Positions 1 through 13,757 of a stretch of 64,000 nucleotides of DNA are shown in pieces. Source of the stretch: a virus. A program made the position numbers and the translations under genes. Under the pieces are notes generated by a model. That model ran no database searches. It was not told the origin of the DNA and worked only from the letters and a program-made list of their open reading frames with translations. Location: UHGV virus genome UHGV-1380027; one strand, written 5' to 3'. How positions within the stretch are numbered: position 1 is the stretch's first letter; each line of letters begins with the position of its first letter.

Positions 1-16
1 ATTTTTTTTGAAAAGT

Positions 17-45
17 GTTGACAGCGGCCCCGCCAGGTGGCACAA
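17..45 (+). promoter_or_regulatory. sigma70-like promoter candidate (TTGACA-N17-CACAAT)
   Basis: TTGACA at 17-22, 17-nt spacer, CACAAT at 40-45; precedes first copy of a ~90-bp repeated unit. Confidence 0.3.
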
Positions 46-290
46 TATACCTATCGAAAGGACGGCAGGCACCGGTGACGGGGGAGACAACCACAGGGGA
101 TGGGCGCTGCATAAAATGAGAACGGTTATCATTATCATTTAAAAATTTATGCAAAAAATCCTTGCTTTCTTTGTCCTGTGTGATACTATAATAACAAGCC
201 GGGGCAACAGGGGCCGGGAGACAATCACCGGGGGTGCCCGTTATTCTGCAAACGAGAATGATTATCATTCAAAATTCTAAATGAGAACTT
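46..290. repeat. two diverged copies of a ~90-bp unit (46-145 and 193-290), possible small RNA genes or regulatory elements
   Basis: shared ordered blocks GGGAGACAA(C/T)CAC(A/C)GGGG and GAGAA(C/T)G(G/A)TTATCATT in both copies, each downstream of a promoter-like element; no ORF. Confidence 0.4.
162..192 (+). promoter_or_regulatory. sigma70-like promoter candidate (TTGCTT ... TATAAT)
   Basis: perfect TATAAT at 187-192, TTGCTT at 162-167 (19-nt spacer, non-optimal); precedes second copy of the repeated unit. Confidence 0.3.
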
Positions 291-397
291 TTCGCATTTC
301 ATAAATTTAGTTAGCATGCTAATTACCTACCGTGACAATTCTATATAAAATAATACCTCCTTAAGTATTTCCATATACAAATTTTAAAAATCCATTT

Positions 398-566
398 CCG
401 AAAACGAAAAATCGATTTCGTCCCCAAAAATTTCAGGTCGAGCTCCGGAACGATTTCCAGAAAATCTGATTCAGAAAACGAAAAACAGATCGAGTACTAA
501 GAAATTTATCGAGAAAAATTTTCAGAAAATTCAATCTTTGAAACGAAAAACAGATCGAGTACTGAG
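398..566. repeat. AT-rich iteron-like direct repeats
   Basis: identical 23-mer AAACGAAAAACAGATCGAGTACT at 476-498 and 541-563 inside ~47-bp repeat copies (455-501, 520-566); diverged third copy GAAAACGAAAAATCGAT at 400-416. Confidence 0.6.
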
Positions 567-721
567 AGAGATGTATCAAAACCTACTGAGAATAATGGGT
601 TTATTGTTATAAAGGGTCAAAGGTAAGCTGGGAAAGTTCTGGTAGAAGGGTGAGAGTATGTGCGGAAAATCTGGAATAGTAACTTAAAGTACGGTGCGAA
701 CGATAGAATGAGCAGCACATC

Positions 722-829
722 TTATCGCGCCTGTCTTGAAAAATCCATTTTAGTTTTCGATCCATTTTCTGATTTTCTAAGAATTTTAAAATATCCGGCC
801 AGGTAAAATATCAAAAGGAGGAAGTCCAT
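722..829 (-). CDS. possible small ORF, 35 aa, hydrophobic N-terminus (MDFLLLIFYLAGYF...)
   Basis: ATG 8 nt downstream of AAGGAGGA on minus strand; below the 60-aa cutoff of the supplied track; uncertain. Confidence 0.2.
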   Translation of the reverse strand: MDFLLLIFYLAGYFKILRKSENGSKTKMDFSRQAR

Positions 830-845
830 TTTAGAAATCCTCCTT
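815..845 (-). promoter_or_regulatory. perfect 8-bp inverted repeat AAGGAGGA / TCCTCCTT forming a hairpin that covers the SD and start codon of the small ORF; may also act as end-of-operon structure
   Basis: arms at 815-822 and 838-845, 15-nt loop containing the ATG (827-829 complement). Confidence 0.35.
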
Positions 846-874
846 ATACTTGATGTGCCAGGGATTTTCAAGTA

Positions 875-2254: not shown

Positions 2255-2449
2255 TTACAGGTTACTCCAGTATACTCGGCATTTACACTTCGGGCAATGA
2301 GGTTCTTTTATGTAATAACCGTCAGTCTTTGGAACACTTTTTGGTGCAGTTTTAAGATTGTACCGAGTAAAGCAACGGAAGCAGGTTACCTCTCCTACCT
2401 GTTGATCGTTTATCCACTCGCCAGAGTAAAGCTCTTTCTTGTTTCTCAT
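2255..2449 (-). CDS. small Cys-rich protein (CxxC...CxxC zinc-ribbon-like), 64 aa
   Basis: track ORF 2255..2506 trimmed to internal ATG at 2449 which has SD GGGAGA and avoids overlap with upstream gene; motifs CFRC and CPKCKC. Confidence 0.45.
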   Translation of the reverse strand: MRNKKELYSGEWINDQQVGEVTCFRCFTRYNLKTAPKSVPKTDGYYIKEPHCPKCKCRVYWSNL

Positions 2450-2451
2450 AA

Positions 2452-2646
2452 TTATCTCCCCAAGCCTCTGCAATCTTCTACCAGAATCTCCAGCCAGAAA
2501 GCACACGGGAACACTTTGATGATTGAATCTTTACTCGGCTCGGAAGTTCTTTTTCCGTAGGGCAGGTAGAAATACCCTCCTGCAGATTCAAACATGGCTC
2601 CTTCTGTTGTATCTATCACAGCTAGAATTAAGATTTTAGTCTCCAT
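2452..2646 (-). CDS. hypothetical protein (64 aa)
   Basis: co-oriented ORF. Confidence 0.4.
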   Translation of the reverse strand: METKILILAVIDTTEGAMFESAGGYFYLPYGKRTSEPSKDSIIKVFPCAFWLEILVEDCRGLGR

Positions 2647-2700: not shown

Positions 2701-3240
2701 TCAACACTCTTTGTACTCCACCACGATAATATCTATATCAAAAGTGGCAAGGTTAATAATGTCCTCTACATGTTCCCACTTCAAACCGCCTATGCCGCAC
2801 CCGATCTTAGGGATGTAGAATGGTAAAATCGACCCCTCAAATACTTCATTGACTCGCTCAAATCCTTTCAGTATTGAGAAATATTCAGCATTAGGCCCTG
2901 GGTAGAACTGAGTATACAGATTTATTCCGTAGACAATACCTCTCGGAGATAAGTGCTCCCAGCGGGAGAACGCGCCCAGTTTACTTAGGCAACCGTGCAT
3001 AGTCATTTTATCAGCTTCCAATGCTTGAGGGAACTCACGGGCAATCTGTTTTGCTACACCCTTACCCATTGTGTGGAAGCAGTTACAACCGTGGATCAGG
3101 TGACCAGCACCGCTCTTAAAAAGGGAGATTAAATCTCCCTCTACAGTATCAATAATCACGATATTCCAGCTCCTCTTCCACAATTTCAAAAAACTCAGTC
3201 CAGCACTGTGGCATATTGGAGTTACCGAAGTGGCTTTCAT
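2701..3240 (-). CDS. macro-domain-like protein (ADP-ribose binding/hydrolase fold)
   Basis: motifs HGCNCFHTMGKGVAKQIAREFP, LYTQFYPGP, FYIPKIGCGIGGL and DIDIIVVEY match the order and spacing of macro-domain loops (NAAN..GGGV..AI / HTVGP / AISTGIYG / RIIFCVF); true start may be GTG at 3159 (SD GAGGAG) rather than ATG 3240. Confidence 0.5.
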   Translation of the reverse strand: MKATSVTPICHSAGLSFLKLWKRSWNIVIIDTVEGDLISLFKSGAGHLIHGCNCFHTMGKGVAKQIAREFPQALEADKMTMHGCLSKLGAFSRWEHLSPRGIVYGINLYTQFYPGPNAEYFSILKGFERVNEVFEGSILPFYIPKIGCGIGGLKWEHVEDIINLATFDIDIIVVEYKEC

Positions 3241-8842: not shown

Positions 8843-11620
8843 TTAGTGACAATCGCCCCAGTTACGACCGCACAAGTATTCACCTGTGATCTGGAACGGA
8901 ACGCCCATCATTTTAGAAGCCTGCCAGAAGCAATGCACCACCATTTCGCCCACAGGGCTCCAGATAAGTTCAAGCTTTCCGTCATCGTTCAAGATAGGAT
9001 CGTATACCGTATTTCCGTCCTTGTCAACCACTTCGTTTCCGTCCTCATCTTTGCGTGCCTTTTTGTACTTATGACCGTCGAACACATGAAGTTTAGCCTC
9101 TTGTTGGGCTTTAAATGTTTCCAGCTCTTCAATTGTGTCGAAGGTGTATACAGTTTTATACTTAGGGGTGTCAGGCACTTGAAGCTGATATTCGTCATGG
9201 TAATAAATAATACGACGAACACCTTCATCATACCATCCACGCTTCACCATTTGGTGGTGCATGAGGATTCCGACCAAGTCGCACAACGATGCACCGCCAT
9301 TTTGCTGATATGCATTAAGCAAAGAGTGTTTAGAGCGGGTCCAAATGGCATGCCCGTCAAAAGAGTAGATAAATTTCTTACCTGTTGCTTCCCAGAATTT
9401 CTCCAGATCCTCTTTGCGCCCCTTAAGACCTGGGTTGGCATCCCAGAGAGCATCAATTACTCTCTGCCCCAGTTCTGGAGAGATATCCAGCATATCTGCA
9501 ACTTTATCTTTTTGTGCCCCATACATAACCCCATACGTGATAGGTTTACCATCGTTACGAGACACCTCTCTACCTGCTACTTTTGTATATGCCTCAGCAT
9601 TGTTTTGGTGCGCGTCCCCGTTACTTACAACATCATAATACAGGCCGTTGTCAAACTCAAATGCACCCCAGGCCCCGATGAGCTGCTCTAAGTTGGACCC
9701 GTCAATACCGATCTCAAAGTATCCAGGAGGAACACCCCACAGACTACGCATCTCTTTACCCATAACCACTTTAGGAGATGGTTTAGGCATGTTTGCACAA
9801 ATACTATGTTTCTGTCTGGAAGTGTTTGTTAATCCAGAACTTTTAGCAGGAAGCTTGTGGTCAATCTTCAAACGTGGATGATTAAGAAGACCAGTATCAA
9901 CCTTATCTTCCTTGATTGGATCAAGGACCGATCTGCGGTTTCGCAATGATAACCACAAAACGATATCTTTAGCCATCTCTCCGTTCAATTTTTCAAGATT
10001 CGGGCACAGGTGTCCAAACGTATCTTTCAGTTGCGGAGAAGTAATAAGCGCTCTGGCTTTTCTACGTATCTTCCCAAACACTTCCTTTTTAATCCTTTCT
10101 GAGTTAGGGAAGCTTCGGAACTTATGCACAGTTGTCTGGAACTTGGCATCAGTTTTGTTCCAGAAGTTGATAATTAGATCACAATACTCTGACTCCAAAA
10201 GCTCGTCCATATATGCATATACTCGTGCATCAACATCTGCATCAGGTAAAGCTTTCTTCTTGCTGTCTTTAGTTACATCTTTAGTTCTCCACATTGTTGG
10301 GAGCCAACCAGCACTGATCAGGTATCGCTTGATGTCGTCCTGATTGCTGATTTTCATAGGTATCTTGCAGTCAGGCATTCGCTTCTGCTGTAGGTCACTT
10401 ATCGCCTGATCCATCAGCTCTTTAGGTAAAGGGTGTGGTGTAGAAGTTCCTTTGATATACCCCCTCAAGAAATCAGCCATCTTATCGGGGTCTTTACAGC
10501 CCATCTCTTCACACCATTTTATCCCCATCTTACTTACATCCCCTGTGGAGGTAAATGCTCGCTTAGGAGGAGCTTTGAACTCTAAAGCACTCATGTCCAC
10601 AGGGTAGCCAAGCTTGTCTTTTAACCATTTCCAACCATTATTGGAGATTGTCCCATCCTGGTTAAACGGCTTTTCAGGGAACTTAGGCCGCTGAGACATT
10701 GATAACTCTTTTAAAGGAAGTTGTGGTTCAACACGATCAGCGATCTCTTTCATCCACGCATCGCAACGGTCACGTAAAGCAATAGCCCCATCTATGTCGA
10801 AATACACCCCCTGTCGAGCCTGCAGCTCCATCAGGAAGTGCTGTAACATGCCTCGGCGTAATGCGTTCTTCCAGGTGATCTTCTTGAAGCCTTTCGGCTT
10901 CTCTTTGGCAGGATCGTACATAAAGTTCTGCATGTCAGATTTGCCGTAGAATACACCTTTTGATTCAGCTACCAACTCCTTCCAGAGCAACTCCTGAATG
11001 ATAACGTCCTCGAACACACGATCCACATACTTCCACAGCGGAAGCTCACGCCAGTCATCGATTTGAACTTTCTGGTTACCAAGGGCATAGCCCCATGCCA
11101 TAAGGCCATGAGGCCCAACAGGCTGCATTTTCTTGGTAACTGGATTGAATACTGCGTCCGGACAACCTTTTGGCAAAGGGCGGTCAGGCCACAAGATTCG
11201 ACTCATCGCTAACGTATCAAACAGATTAACCTGGTGGTCGTTGATAGTTCCCATGCATTTAGGATCACGGAACATATCAAAATGAATACCGGATAATCTT
11301 TCCATCAGCATAAAGTCGTAACTGTAGCAGTTATGGCAGTTCAAAGCCGTAGGTGACCAGTCTGAATTGCCTGTAAGCCAGCCTTCCAACTCTGAAAAAT
11401 CTGCTATGCGAGCCTCAAAATCTGTATAAAGGGTCTTCTTTGCCAGAATGAAGTTCTTAGCTTTCTCCACATCCTCTTCAGAGTAGTGTGTGCGGTCATT
11501 TAGGGGAAGGAACAGCATAAAACGGTTCTTATTCAGCTCTTTAAACAAACCGCAGTGATAATAAAGATCTGGGTCTTCCAGCAAGCCAGAGGCCTCAAAA
11601 TCGAACGACCACATGCTCAT
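8843..11620 (-). CDS. DNA polymerase, family A, with 3'-5' exonuclease domain (925 aa)
   Basis: Exo I FDFEASGL; motif A DGSNLEQLIGAW; motif B SRNDGKPITYGVMYGAQ; motif C IIYYHDEYQLQV; SD AAGGAGA. Confidence 0.85.
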   Translation of the reverse strand: MSMWSFDFEASGLLEDPDLYYHCGLFKELNKNRFMLFLPLNDRTHYSEEDVEKAKNFILAKKTLYTDFEARIADFSELEGWLTGNSDWSPTALNCHNCYSYDFMLMERLSGIHFDMFRDPKCMGTINDHQVNLFDTLAMSRILWPDRPLPKGCPDAVFNPVTKKMQPVGPHGLMAWGYALGNQKVQIDDWRELPLWKYVDRVFEDVIIQELLWKELVAESKGVFYGKSDMQNFMYDPAKEKPKGFKKITWKNALRRGMLQHFLMELQARQGVYFDIDGAIALRDRCDAWMKEIADRVEPQLPLKELSMSQRPKFPEKPFNQDGTISNNGWKWLKDKLGYPVDMSALEFKAPPKRAFTSTGDVSKMGIKWCEEMGCKDPDKMADFLRGYIKGTSTPHPLPKELMDQAISDLQQKRMPDCKIPMKISNQDDIKRYLISAGWLPTMWRTKDVTKDSKKKALPDADVDARVYAYMDELLESEYCDLIINFWNKTDAKFQTTVHKFRSFPNSERIKKEVFGKIRRKARALITSPQLKDTFGHLCPNLEKLNGEMAKDIVLWLSLRNRRSVLDPIKEDKVDTGLLNHPRLKIDHKLPAKSSGLTNTSRQKHSICANMPKPSPKVVMGKEMRSLWGVPPGYFEIGIDGSNLEQLIGAWGAFEFDNGLYYDVVSNGDAHQNNAEAYTKVAGREVSRNDGKPITYGVMYGAQKDKVADMLDISPELGQRVIDALWDANPGLKGRKEDLEKFWEATGKKFIYSFDGHAIWTRSKHSLLNAYQQNGGASLCDLVGILMHHQMVKRGWYDEGVRRIIYYHDEYQLQVPDTPKYKTVYTFDTIEELETFKAQQEAKLHVFDGHKYKKARKDEDGNEVVDKDGNTVYDPILNDDGKLELIWSPVGEMVVHCFWQASKMMGVPFQITGEYLCGRNWGDCH

Positions 11621-11678
11621 ATACAGTTCTCCTTAAAGGGGAGGCGGTTGTACTACCCCTCCCACTCTTGGTTAAACA

Positions 11679-13757
11679 TTAAAAAGGTGTTTCGTCGTCT
11701 TCAAAACCAGGAACGTGGTTAGAGGACGGATCATCATACTGAAGATCTTCCTGTGTGTCAACAGGGTTAACAGCAGGAGTTATAACCTTATCAGCCACAA
11801 CCTTGCCCACAGGTGTTTCTACAACTGCATGCTCCTGATCCTCAAACATAGCTTGAGGTCTCCAAACAACCTCTCCACCTTCCCCGTCTGTAAACATCTG
11901 CATCTCTTTATCCCAATACCAATTGCTGGCATCGTGGAACTTGCCTGTGTGGGGATCCATAACTAGAGTGTCCGCAATACCTAAGGTTTTTGCTGGGCGG
12001 TTTTTAAGACCTACCAGCCGGACACGCCCACGGGAACGATCCACCATCTCCTCTGCCTCTACCCCGACAACCACCCAGCTAAGTTGCTCCAATCCGGCAC
12101 TACCGCGAAGGTTCTCTTTTCGTACAGGGTACCAGAAAGGTAACGGATTTCCATCCTTATCCTTCGGAGGTACAATCTCTGTGCGCTTCAGGTGAGCAAT
12201 CACCAAGATAAACACATTAAACTGCTTACAGAACGCGGCTAGTTGAGTCATAGCCATGTCAAGCTCTTTACGCTCATCCTTAACATTAAGCCCTGAAATC
12301 ACCATAGACAAGTGATCCAGCACAATGTAACGGCAGTGATACAGGCACACCATTTGTTTAAGCTTAGTGATCAGCTCATCTACAGGGATGGAGCCGAAAT
12401 GCTTGAACACTTTGATTTTTCCGGCCTTGGCCCAAGATTGATGAATCTCAGCGTGCTCCTGATCGGTCAGGAACTGACTGGGGTCTTCAACAAACTCTTT
12501 AACATCAACCCCCAGCTGGTTAGCGTACAGAGAGTTGATTGCTTCCTCAGGATCCTCTTCAAGGTGAATCAGGCACAGGCGATCATCCTCTTCATAATCA
12601 TCAGCTTTAGGGCATGTTGGGTCCATCAAGTATCTTGCAATGCAATGTTCCAGCTTCTTGGCTACAGTTGTTTTACCACCGCCAGACGGGCCTGTCAGCA
12701 TCATCAAGGTGCCTTTGTGGAGTCCTTTCAGCATCTTCTGCAGTTTAGGGAACTCTGCACTAATATCCACGCCATTGGAAGTCTTCTTACGAAGAGATTC
12801 AATGGAGAAGTCTTCTAAATCAGATACAGCATCAGGCACATATTTGACTGGGTGACGGAACATGTTGACAATATCTTCCAGCTTTTTAGCCTTCAGCATG
12901 TCACGAATATCTTTTACACCATCAGGGTCGTTTACCTCACCTGGGTATTCCACGTGGTAAACGTTGTCAGCCATCAAAAATGCTGCGATATTATGCGTAG
13001 CTTCAACACCTTTGATAACGTGTTTTTGCTTCTCTACCTCGTTAGCTGCATCGTTGTCCATTGCAAGGACTACTGTTCCGTAGCTACGGATAAATTTCTC
13101 ATTGTTCGCAAAAGTGTCTACGGCGTTTGCACACCCGCAGTTAATTCCGACAAAAGGCAGGCATGGTTTTCCTGCCAGATCACCGCCGTTGATAACTGCA
13201 TCAATCCCATCCTGGACTTCTTTAGCCCACTGCTTCACCTTCGCCGGGGCTTTAGTATTGGTGAGAATTCCTTTTACTTGTACCTGATATGCAGCCTGCC
13301 ACGCTGCAATAACATCTCCTTCCCCCTCACAAACGTTAATCTGCTTGCGGTTGTTGGAGGATGCACACAGCTTTTGACCAAACATCTGGGAGTTGGCCTT
13401 TACTATGCCAACAACCGAGAAATGGCCCCTTTGCTCTTTAGGGATTGTCCAGTCCCGCTTTTTAAAGCCAGATAGATTACCGTAGCGGTCATAATACGGA
13501 AAGTAGGTGGCAGTAACAGTTACACCATCCTCTTGGGATAGCGATGATCGTACACCAAAATATTGTGCAGCCATCAGTCCAATATTTTGTTGTGGAACAG
13601 GGACAATTTTAGTATTTTCTAAAACAGTCTCTACAGTTTCAACTTCTTTTTCATCACGATAGTCTCGTTTCACACTTCCCCCACTTTTATACTTAGTTGC
13701 TTTCGGGTTTTGCTCACCGAAACGGTTGTATGCAGATGCCATGAATTTACTGCCCAT
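11679..13757 (-). CDS. primase-helicase fusion (TOPRIM domain + DnaB-like helicase), T7 gp4-like organisation (692 aa)
   Basis: TOPRIM motifs NVCEGEGD and LAMDNDAANE; Walker A LTGPSGGGKTT; Walker B IVLDHL; acidic C-terminus FEDDETPF; SD AAGGAGA. Confidence 0.8.
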   Translation of the reverse strand: MGSKFMASAYNRFGEQNPKATKYKSGGSVKRDYRDEKEVETVETVLENTKIVPVPQQNIGLMAAQYFGVRSSLSQEDGVTVTATYFPYYDRYGNLSGFKKRDWTIPKEQRGHFSVVGIVKANSQMFGQKLCASSNNRKQINVCEGEGDVIAAWQAAYQVQVKGILTNTKAPAKVKQWAKEVQDGIDAVINGGDLAGKPCLPFVGINCGCANAVDTFANNEKFIRSYGTVVLAMDNDAANEVEKQKHVIKGVEATHNIAAFLMADNVYHVEYPGEVNDPDGVKDIRDMLKAKKLEDIVNMFRHPVKYVPDAVSDLEDFSIESLRKKTSNGVDISAEFPKLQKMLKGLHKGTLMMLTGPSGGGKTTVAKKLEHCIARYLMDPTCPKADDYEEDDRLCLIHLEEDPEEAINSLYANQLGVDVKEFVEDPSQFLTDQEHAEIHQSWAKAGKIKVFKHFGSIPVDELITKLKQMVCLYHCRYIVLDHLSMVISGLNVKDERKELDMAMTQLAAFCKQFNVFILVIAHLKRTEIVPPKDKDGNPLPFWYPVRKENLRGSAGLEQLSWVVVGVEAEEMVDRSRGRVRLVGLKNRPAKTLGIADTLVMDPHTGKFHDASNWYWDKEMQMFTDGEGGEVVWRPQAMFEDQEHAVVETPVGKVVADKVITPAVNPVDTQEDLQYDDPSSNHVPGFEDDETPF

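Follow-up and report, generated by a model that had tools for sequence, protein, structure and literature searches.

Genomic setting of the locus

The first 870 nucleotides of a 64,000-nucleotide stretch of the virus genome UHGV-1380027 (the whole stretch is called the window here) hold rightward promoters, two paralogous hairpin-RNA units, Fur-box-like operators, an AT-rich segment and an array of direct repeats (Table 1). Judged from its sequence, this region and the adjoining ∼110 bp to its left make up a non-coding control region that is conserved among the rV5-like phages and embedded in their leftward early transcription unit. The window could be assigned to Vequintavirus because its first 1.3 kb is 99.8% identical to the Escherichia phages B9-1 and ECP26 and 88–94% identical to rV5, FV3 and Murica.

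Table 1. Features of the locus and of related cassettes. Positions are those of the window, except in the last three rows, where they refer to the sequences named.
Feature	Position	Strand	Description
Open frame	1–268	-	Homologous to rV5 ORF198, Murica gp179 and Gotham F10B_0202; judged non-coding
Promoter P1	18–46	+	TTGACA 18–23, 17-bp spacer, TG-extended CACAAT 41–46
Unit 1	53–112	+	G-rich leader, loop motif GGAGACAACCAC (83–94), outer pairing GCAGGC/GCGCUGC
Fur-box-like operator 1	112–142	.	Core 118–136, GATAATGATAACCGTTCTC on the minus strand
Promoter P2	162–192	+	TTGCTT 162–167, 16-bp spacer, TACTAT 184–189; TATAAT 187–192 overlaps
Unit 2	194–246	+	5′-terminal hairpin: outer helix, inner helix CCGG/CCGG, apical loop GAGACAAUCA
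Fur-box-like operator 2	248–272	.	Core CGAGAATGATTATCA at 253–267
Degenerate third box	277–301	.	TGAGAACTTTTCGCA at 282–296, 3 mismatches, weak (6.1 bits)
AT-richest segment, candidate DNA-unwinding element	296–396	.	GC 24%; contains P3
Weak candidate promoter P3	311–316, 334–339	+	TTAGCA, 17 bp, GACAAT; sequence reading
Three direct repeats	387–433, 448–502, 513–567	+	Core GAAAACGAAAAAC/TNGATCGAGTACT; one GATC per full core
Terminator-like hairpin	394–431	-	Palindromic first repeat copy
Hypervariable spacer	531–737	.	G-rich on the plus strand
Second conserved block	738–845	.	Inverted repeat-like core 753–769 (minus strand, GATC), AAATCCATTTTAG motifs 741–753 and 822–834, stem-loop 815–845
Extra cassette, L187 (Gotham)	2440–2600	-	
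Extra cassette, L046	4300–4440	-	
Extra cassette, L140	4995–5047	-	

In the complete genomes of Murica and rV5, minus-strand genes flank the region to the left and right, and it falls within a long early transcription unit that runs leftward. A preliminary description of the window had placed it at the distal end of the minus-strand early block, which is wrong, as minus-strand genes extend 11 kb further left in the complete genomes. The record of phage Gotham begins at a 459-bp terminal repeat; in this 137-kb genome the region spans 11,054–11,920 and so lies 11.05 kb (8.1%) from the physical left end. Because of this position, the locus is neither the distal end of the early block nor the packaging terminus, and a role as packaging site was ruled out with the terminal repeat 11 kb distant. 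The homologous locus of Klebsiella phage KPP-1 lies ∼8.5 kb to the right of the reported terminal repeat. The coordinates at which other records start (EC152, for example) are arbitrary.

The left limit of the region is the edge of the window, and the ∼110 non-coding bases further left contain additional GGCCCCGCCAGGT repeats. This sequence is also present in the spacer of P1 (26–38), and 2–3 more copies were seen further left, outside the window (L004 2215–2535). In L070, a diverged Vequintavirus-like contig, every copy of GGCCCCGCCAGGT is followed by AATGTTGTAACTAA (2890–3020, minus-strand reading).

The left block of Gotham is made up of small genes of unknown function, ∼40 in number; many sigma70 promoters are predicted in it, and its largest product has 207 aa. 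The rightward promoters of the locus are antisense to all surrounding genes. Searches of Pfam and PHROGs with the neighbouring proteins returned only unknown function, DUF7170 or NADAR, and no initiator; no tRNA or tmRNA was found in the window. Recent capture of the region from a host was rejected, as no E. coli genome matched. The composite pattern is absent from representative genomes of the Enterobacterales, all 22 matches there being due to chance. A 179-aa open reading frame (ORF) on the minus strand of the window (2701–3240) is the counterpart of Murica gp188, noted as ‘contains Macro domain’. We also observed that 16–17 MG0656xx records labelled ‘Campylobacter phage’ (host C. jejuni) are 87–90% identical to the window; the host label seems doubtful.

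Coding potential and nucleotide constraint

The region had been described as gene-free, with no ORF of at least 60 aa on either strand. This is correct for ORFs lying wholly inside the window, but a 92-codon minus-strand ORF starts at 268 and leaves through the left edge, and corresponds to the frame annotated as ORF198 in rV5. We therefore compared variable sites by codon position in an alignment of eight Vequintaviruses (87–98% identical). The ORF198 frame gave counts of 5/8/9 and a small ORF at 829–722 gave 6/4/7, whereas four neighbouring genes gave 23/12/46, 7/3/28, 15/6/26 and 16/12/53, an excess at third positions, of which 32–48% were variable. Coding by ORF198 and by ORF199 was rejected on these counts, and ‘gene-free’ holds in substance for positions 1–870.

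A reading in which the region encodes protein (rV5 ORF198 and ORF199 with their homologues), the repeats being incidental, is accordingly very unlikely. The ORFs are annotated in rV5, Murica and Gotham, the window keeps the ORF198 frame open, and the ATG at 829 has a strong ribosome-binding-site-like AAGGAGGA 8 nt ahead of it. However, third-position variation is not in excess, ORF199 is shortened to 35 codons in the window, Murica annotates no ribosome-binding site for its ORF198 homologue, and ORF198 is without a counterpart in other genera, where the ORFs are missing despite conserved DNA. Likewise, the ‘ORFs’ over the repeats in GAP31 and P7_Pc match through the DNA repeat only; GAP31_043A resembles the window solely in this way. 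Several annotated ‘hypothetical proteins’ over the locus are thus flagged here as probably spurious: rV5 ORF198 and ORF199 (window 1–268 and 617–829), GAP31_043A (L003 2651–2932, annotated ‘poor ribosome-binding site’) and P7_Pc orf143–146 (L130 1428–2350).

In the same alignment, variable sites amounted to 5.7% in 53–140, 5.5% in 141–195 and 6.7% in 196–300, rose to 24% in 301–385, fell to 6.9% in 386–530, and were 53% in 531–737 and 8.3% in 738–845. This pattern implies constraint on the nucleotides themselves, in three blocks.

Promoters and paralogous hairpin units

Two promoters, each followed by a paralogous unit, had been proposed at the left end of the region, and both units are indeed present, with shared blocks at 82–102 and 216–236 (GGGAGACAAC/TCAC) and at 114–133 and 250–269 (AAAYGAGAAYGRTTATCATT). 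The first promoter, earlier placed at 17–45, was recovered in a promoter scan as P1, with 10/12 sigma70 consensus positions plus TG; variable sites among the eight Vequintaviruses fall in its spacer and at position 3 of the −10 element. For the second, the reported TATAAT exists but lies 19 bp from TTGCTT, and alignment with relatives points to TACTAT, which overlaps it by 3 nt, as the working −10 element. P2 was not called by the simple scan and is proposed from sequence reading and from alignment with the corresponding promoters of other genera. The hexamers of the weak candidate P3 are retained in L070 and rV5. Among relatives, −35 and −10 elements are kept while the spacers have diverged.

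We then asked whether the units could form conserved RNA structures. A covariance model (R1), seeded from eight sequences, recovered unit 2 (31.1 bits, E = 3.5e-8) and its homologues in all genera, of which there are at least six. Unit 1 shares the fold topology of unit 2 and was not detected by R1; its 5′ half resembles the third cassette copy in Gotham. Single-sequence folds gave a common topology in 12 of 15 representatives, in which the 5′ end of the transcript takes part in one helix, alongside an inner helix and a GAGACAA loop, with fold z-scores from −4.5 to ∼0 (−0.26 for unit 2 and −0.38 for unit 1). In the R1 alignment, 85.6% of cells were paired, against 35–50% in slid controls, and four pairs had changes in both partners; as many were seen in 17 of 500 shuffles. 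The excess of G-U over A-C cells (22 to 8) favours an RNA read from the plus strand. RNAalifold on a plain MAFFT alignment returned no hairpin, no plus-strand terminator-like site was found in 1–1500, so that the units have no intrinsic terminator, and neither the window nor three relatives had an Rfam match with E ≤ 1.

Taken together, these results lend real though modest support to a functional RNA hairpin. The earlier proposal of paralogous small RNAs or protein-binding modules, for which covariation among homologous regions had been suggested as a check, is thus borne out in part: helices in relatives remain complementary despite sequence change, but the window's own units lack a terminator, an Rfam match and a thermodynamic signal, and the covariation is equalled by some shuffled alignments. 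We also considered a Fur-regulated small RNA on the minus strand (promoter TTGAAT-N18-CAGAAT, with the box in its spacer); it was dropped in view of the G-U to A-C ratio and of the missing U-tract in other genera.

Fur-box-like operators

The second shared block, which had been taken as part of the putative RNA modules, does not belong to the RNA fold. It contains GAGAAYGRTTATCATT, a palindromic Fur-box-like operator whose two copies are the two best Fur-matrix matches in the 64 kb. The Fur box consensus of Gram-negative bacteria is GATAATGATAATCATTATC, with a GATAATGAGAATCATTATT type given in PMC10665472 and a 25-mer motif for Acinetobacter baumannii in PMC3055841. The core of operator 1 agrees with this consensus at 16/19 positions, the sole such match in 64 kb, where 0 are expected; the consensus has an alternative 7-1-7 form, TGATAATnATTATCA, and the palindromic consensus expected of a Fur box is present. 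We built matrices from the published iron-box lists (PMC10665472, PMC3055841), the training minima being 14.3 and 20.2 bits. Operator 1 scored 23.0 bits, the highest value in the window, and operator 2 reached 18.3 bits (19-mer matrix) and 24.1 bits (25-mer matrix), both operators being inside the range of the training sites. By sequence, then, the boxes are indistinguishable from enterobacterial Fur boxes.

The spacing of the boxes is conserved. All 18 relatives inspected have their first box, like operator 2 in the window, at an offset of exactly +28 from CACCG (15.9–24.1 bits), and additional boxes follow at ∼29-bp steps; at the position of the degenerate third box, relatives hold stronger boxes with 29-bp phasing. 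Relative to their own start site, box centres are at +65 to +74; relative to the next promoter, they are at about −57 to −90. The overlap with −35 or −10 elements that marks classical Fur repression was not seen. In Seunavirus and Mydovirus, the boxes adjoin an A-tract and the −35 element of the next promoter. No Fur homologue was detectable in any Vequintavirinae or Stephanstirmvirinae record; a phage-encoded Fur was therefore set aside, and any Fur-family protein binding here would be that of the host.

The boxes might instead act as a decoy, titrating host Fur on replicating genomes and so de-repressing iron uptake for the iron-dependent ribonucleotide reductases of the phage. There are one to four strong Fur-like boxes per locus, with one more in the second cassette of Klebsiella-type phages, and rV5 encodes NrdAB and NrdDG (PMC3606486). 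We consider this role unlikely, since the boxes keep a strict position and phasing with respect to the hairpin and to the promoter that follows, which suggests action in cis, and a genome holds only ∼2–5 boxes.

Similar boxes were seen in two further settings. In L028, a 347-kb jumbo-sized viral contig (1225–1350), a TATAAT is followed by the 3′ half of the unit only (CCACACCACTCCTGCCTGCTATTCC) and by two Fur-like boxes; the 5′ hairpin arm is thus not always found together with the box and the 3′ half. A metagenome-assembled contig of Rhodospirillaceae (L202 1280–1370) has two boxes upstream of a gene for a family-5 solute-binding protein, one of them nearly identical to the Certrevirus box AATGAGAATCATTCTCATT; the contig shares an 18-mer box with the phages, and this case is uninformative. 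A first scan of viral contigs with a 16-mer was too unspecific and was not used.

Candidate unwinding segment, direct repeats and second conserved block

Downstream of the boxes, the 100 bp at 296–395 have a duplex free energy of −111.2 kcal/mol, against a mean of −134.2 (sd 5.3), and are the least stable 100 bp in the 64 kb (4.3 sd below the mean). The three AT-richest 100-bp intervals of the 64 kb all fall in 1–870. The DNA is AT-rich, as had been reported earlier, with a measured GC of 24–29%.

The identical 23-mer on which iteron-like repeats had been proposed is exact, and is embedded in the two 55-nt repeats (78% identity); a diverged copy precedes them, and the spacings are 74 and 65 bp. 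The repeats are 72–78% identical overall, with unique spacers between them, and their core is found nowhere else in the 64 kb (0.16 chance matches expected). Absence of the repeats from related genomes would have spoken against a function, and they are present: three repeats of 65–80 bp recur with related cores in Seunavirus, Certrevirus and Henunavirus, and three of different sequence in Phapecoctavirus and in L144, an unclassified contig. An array encoding a type III antitoxin-like RNA, in which near-identical units of 34–45 nt stand head to tail, was rejected given the length of the units, their 65–74-bp period, their divergence and their unique spacers.

In each of the three Vequintaviruses measured, the hypervariable spacer that follows has a GC skew between +0.5 and +0.6, despite insertions and deletions. 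This G bias may reflect a compositional constraint, such as a tendency to form R-loops. It is otherwise strong only in L144, and the G-skewed segment was rejected as a universal feature. In the second conserved block, sequence reading shows a stem-loop with arms AAGGAGGA and TCCTCCTT; because a T-rich run follows it on the minus strand, it is probably a leftward terminator of the upstream operon.

Conservation across genera

A sensitive DNA search with positions 1–870 outside Vequintavirus matched only 201–301, which comprises unit 2 and its box. Identity over this segment was 80–89% in Seunavirus, Certrevirus, Henunavirus, Mydovirus and Klebsiella phages, and ∼71% in Phapecoctavirus (Stephanstirmvirinae). 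The cassette of promoter, 5′ hairpin and box is common to Vequintavirinae, Stephanstirmvirinae and unclassified contigs, and its parts occur in the same order in GAP31, SSE121, CR3, P7_Pc, Hena1, Mydo, ESCO13, anhysbys and contig L144. Reading along the plus strand of these relatives, a small plus-strand gene (in some genera) is followed by a promoter with a ∼90-nt ‘unit A’, two copies of TGTAAAGA, a promoter with a ‘unit B’ (the type of unit seen in the window), one to four palindromic boxes of the form AATGAGAATnATTCTCATT, a third promoter (in several genera) and three direct repeats of 65–80 bp. Vequintavirus has a second unit B where other genera have unit A. L144 retains unit B, three boxes and three repeats of quite different sequence, and L070 combines a single unit and a single box with the same GATCGAG repeats. 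L070 also has an additional repeat family, five or six copies of TAGTAACG..GGTGATTAATAGTTAC (2580–2760, minus-strand reading), inserted after the box and ahead of the AT-rich segment.

The proteins flanking the locus in other genera have no homologue in the window, and the non-coding locus has thus outlasted its neighbours. It is the best conserved non-coding DNA that we found in the early region, and its persistence across genera where flanking genes are replaced makes it a concrete candidate for an origin or an entry-control site. Genes for HNH homing endonucleases adjoin the locus in several genera (L126 2393–2980, L127 2368–2934, Ro1 and K23PH08C2).

Unit A lies just upstream of unit B, under its own promoter, in Seunavirus, Certrevirus, Mydovirus, Henunavirus and Phapecoctavirus (L125 1620–1715, L003 2310–2405, L126 1630–1725, L129 1680–1765), and has no counterpart in the window. 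Its consensus fold contains 18 pairs, four of them with compensatory changes (for example AU:9/GC:7) that are clearer than those of unit B; a pseudoknot (CCCC/GGGG versus CCAA/UUGG) may also form. As Rfam gave no match for unit A, it could be an undescribed structured RNA.

An extra promoter-hairpin cassette was detected with R1 on the opposite strand, 7–9 kb to the left and upstream of early genes, in Gotham and in Klebsiella-type phages. The copy in Gotham has a 9-bp outer helix (GCAGGCACC/GGUGCCUGU) and no box, and lies between two tandem promoters; that of the Klebsiella-type phages has a Fur-like box.

These observations raise the possibility that the locus is a hub for small RNAs or transcription control with no part in replication. 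The units would then act as small or leader RNAs, with the boxes controlling the promoter that follows or blocking elongation. The long repeats would be bound by a phage transcription regulator or would cause interference with the converging early operon. A conserved promoter precedes each unit, the helices persist through sequence change with the base-pair bias of a plus-strand transcript, unit A shows clear compensatory pairs, the cassette recurs upstream of early genes near the left end, and the boxes of Seunavirus and Mydovirus abut the A-tract and −35 element of the next promoter. Such a hub is possible, and we regard it as a serious alternative, but no intrinsic terminators follow the units, Rfam offers no match, the fold z-scores of the window's own units are near zero, and it leaves unexplained why the least stable DNA and lineage-specific repeats always follow the units.

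A second alternative is that the locus marks a boundary at which DNA entry is stopped or controlled, as in T5. On this view, the first DNA to enter would be the left 8% of the genome, from which small pre-early genes would be expressed. Entry would halt at the repeat-rich untranslated region, and host polymerase moving rightward from P1–P3 would help to draw in the remainder, much as host transcription does in T7. We give this reading some weight because of the fractional position that it shares with the T5 region, the repeats, the host-factor boxes, the partial inverted copy and the unconserved flanks; the HNH insertions also recall T5, as does the untranslated nature of the DNA. The distances from the terminal repeats of Gotham and KPP-1, the left block of small genes rich in predicted sigma70 promoters and the antisense orientation of the rightward promoters fit as well. 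It is nevertheless doubtful: in the literature found, two-step or transcription-driven entry is not reported for this group of myoviruses, the terminal repeat is 459 bp and not ∼10 kb, the left block encodes nothing like the large A1 protein and does not contain the A1/A2 type of pre-early genes, and DnaA boxes are missing.

A proposed origin-type control region

The reading that accounts for most of the features, and that we favour for this reason, is an origin-type control region in which rightward transcripts run into an unwinding element and an iteron array, with Fur-like host-factor boxes; we put its probability at roughly 0.4. In this scheme, the locus would work as a transcription-activated, iteron-type origin of replication. 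P1 and P2 are each predicted to drive a short G-rich leader that can form a 5′-terminal hairpin with a conserved GGAGACAAYCAC loop, and host RNA polymerase from P1, P2 and possibly P3 would transcribe into the unwinding element. A phage protein would bind the lineage-specific repeats, while a host factor, most plausibly Fur, would occupy the boxes and gate or shape rightward transcription. The structured 5′ ends may stabilise or mark the transcripts, which would serve as activator or primer RNAs.

Several hallmarks of an origin are present at the locus. It has a locus-specific array of at least three direct repeats (three, with one inverted copy), an adjacent AT-rich candidate unwinding element at 296–395, and promoters that by prediction point into 296–567 (P1, P2 and the weak P3). 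Its very strong conservation fits an origin as well. The preliminary description had offered replication-origin iterons or an array of regulator-binding sites; both remain viable, because the repeats are kept across genera in number, spacing and partly in sequence and adjoin the least stable DNA. The published analysis of rV5 could not locate an origin, GC skew being uninformative (PMC3606486).

A number of observations weigh against an origin. No recognisable initiator gene is adjacent, the neighbours being of unknown function and not conserved between genera, and no DnaA or IHF consensus sites were found at the locus. The repeat period of 65–80 bp is much longer than that of classical iterons, and the support for RNA structure in the window's own units is modest. 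The boxes are downstream of their own promoter and not over it, which is unusual for Fur repression. Finally, the cassette is not specific to origins, because a further copy stands upstream of early genes elsewhere.

More tentatively, the cassette of sigma70 promoter, hairpin RNA and host-Fur operator found in two subfamilies might couple iron status to rightward non-coding transcription at a fixed boundary 6–8% from the left end. This transcription would gate either replication or genome entry, the latter along the lines of the T5 injection-stop region or of transcription-driven entry in T7. If the boxes do bind Fur, lytic phages would read the iron state of the host, which would be relevant in the iron-limited gut and at sites of infection. 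An iron-coupled cassette, if real, would have no precedent as a Fur-wired control point in lytic phages, and the rV5-like phages would gain their first defined origin or entry signal. The rV5-like and phAPEC8-like phages are widely used as broad-host-range agents in therapy and biocontrol. Our search of the literature on the motifs, on Fur boxes in virulent phages and on transcriptomes of these phages found no matching description.

Comparison with known systems

The primary origin of T7 consists of the tandem promoters 1.1A and 1.1B followed by an AT-rich segment, and oriF and oriG of T4 combine a promoter with a downstream unwinding element and an R-loop primer. The candidate locus resembles these transcription-activated origins in having tandem promoters directed into the most easily melted DNA nearby, transcripts that would be non-coding, and an early-region position not far from the left end, in a genome that likewise has terminal repeats. 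It differs in that its promoters are of the host sigma70 type, and long direct repeats and Fur-like boxes are added.

In iteron-type origins, such as lambda ori, plasmid oriV and RSF1010 oriV with its ssi hairpins, repeats of ∼20 bp are spaced at ∼22 bp. The locus shares with them at least three direct repeats beside an AT-rich element, a lineage-specific repeat sequence, sites for host factors and an inverted copy. Unlike them, it has 55-nt units at a 65–80-bp period, and no adjacent initiator gene and no DnaA or IHF sites.

The putL and putR sites of HK022 encode promoter-proximal antitermination RNAs. Here too, paralogous structured RNAs are predicted just downstream of early promoters in several copies per genome, but there is no sequence relationship, and the two copies at this locus point away from all genes.

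The operators resemble known Fur boxes in their palindromic form, in the 16/19 consensus positions and in arrays with ∼29-bp phasing. They differ in residing in a virulent phage genome, in their position +65 to +74 from the promoter, and in a half-site that in many copies is GAGAAT instead of GATAAT.

The injection-stop region of T5 lies 7.9% from the left end and is a 1.2–1.7-kb untranslated stretch with 66-bp direct repeats, ordered, paired boxes for a host factor (DnaA), a partial copy in inverted orientation a few kb further left, flanking ORFs that are not conserved and insertions of HNH endonuclease genes (bioRxiv 10.1101/866236). The phage family, the repeat sequences, the host factor (DnaA against a Fur-like protein) and the short terminal repeat set our locus apart from it. 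Both, however, are found ∼8% into the genome, are untranslated and rich in repeats over ∼1 kb, and contain repeats of ∼66 bp together with ordered boxes for a host factor. In both, conservation exceeds that of the ORFs alongside, and part of the region recurs in inverted orientation further left.

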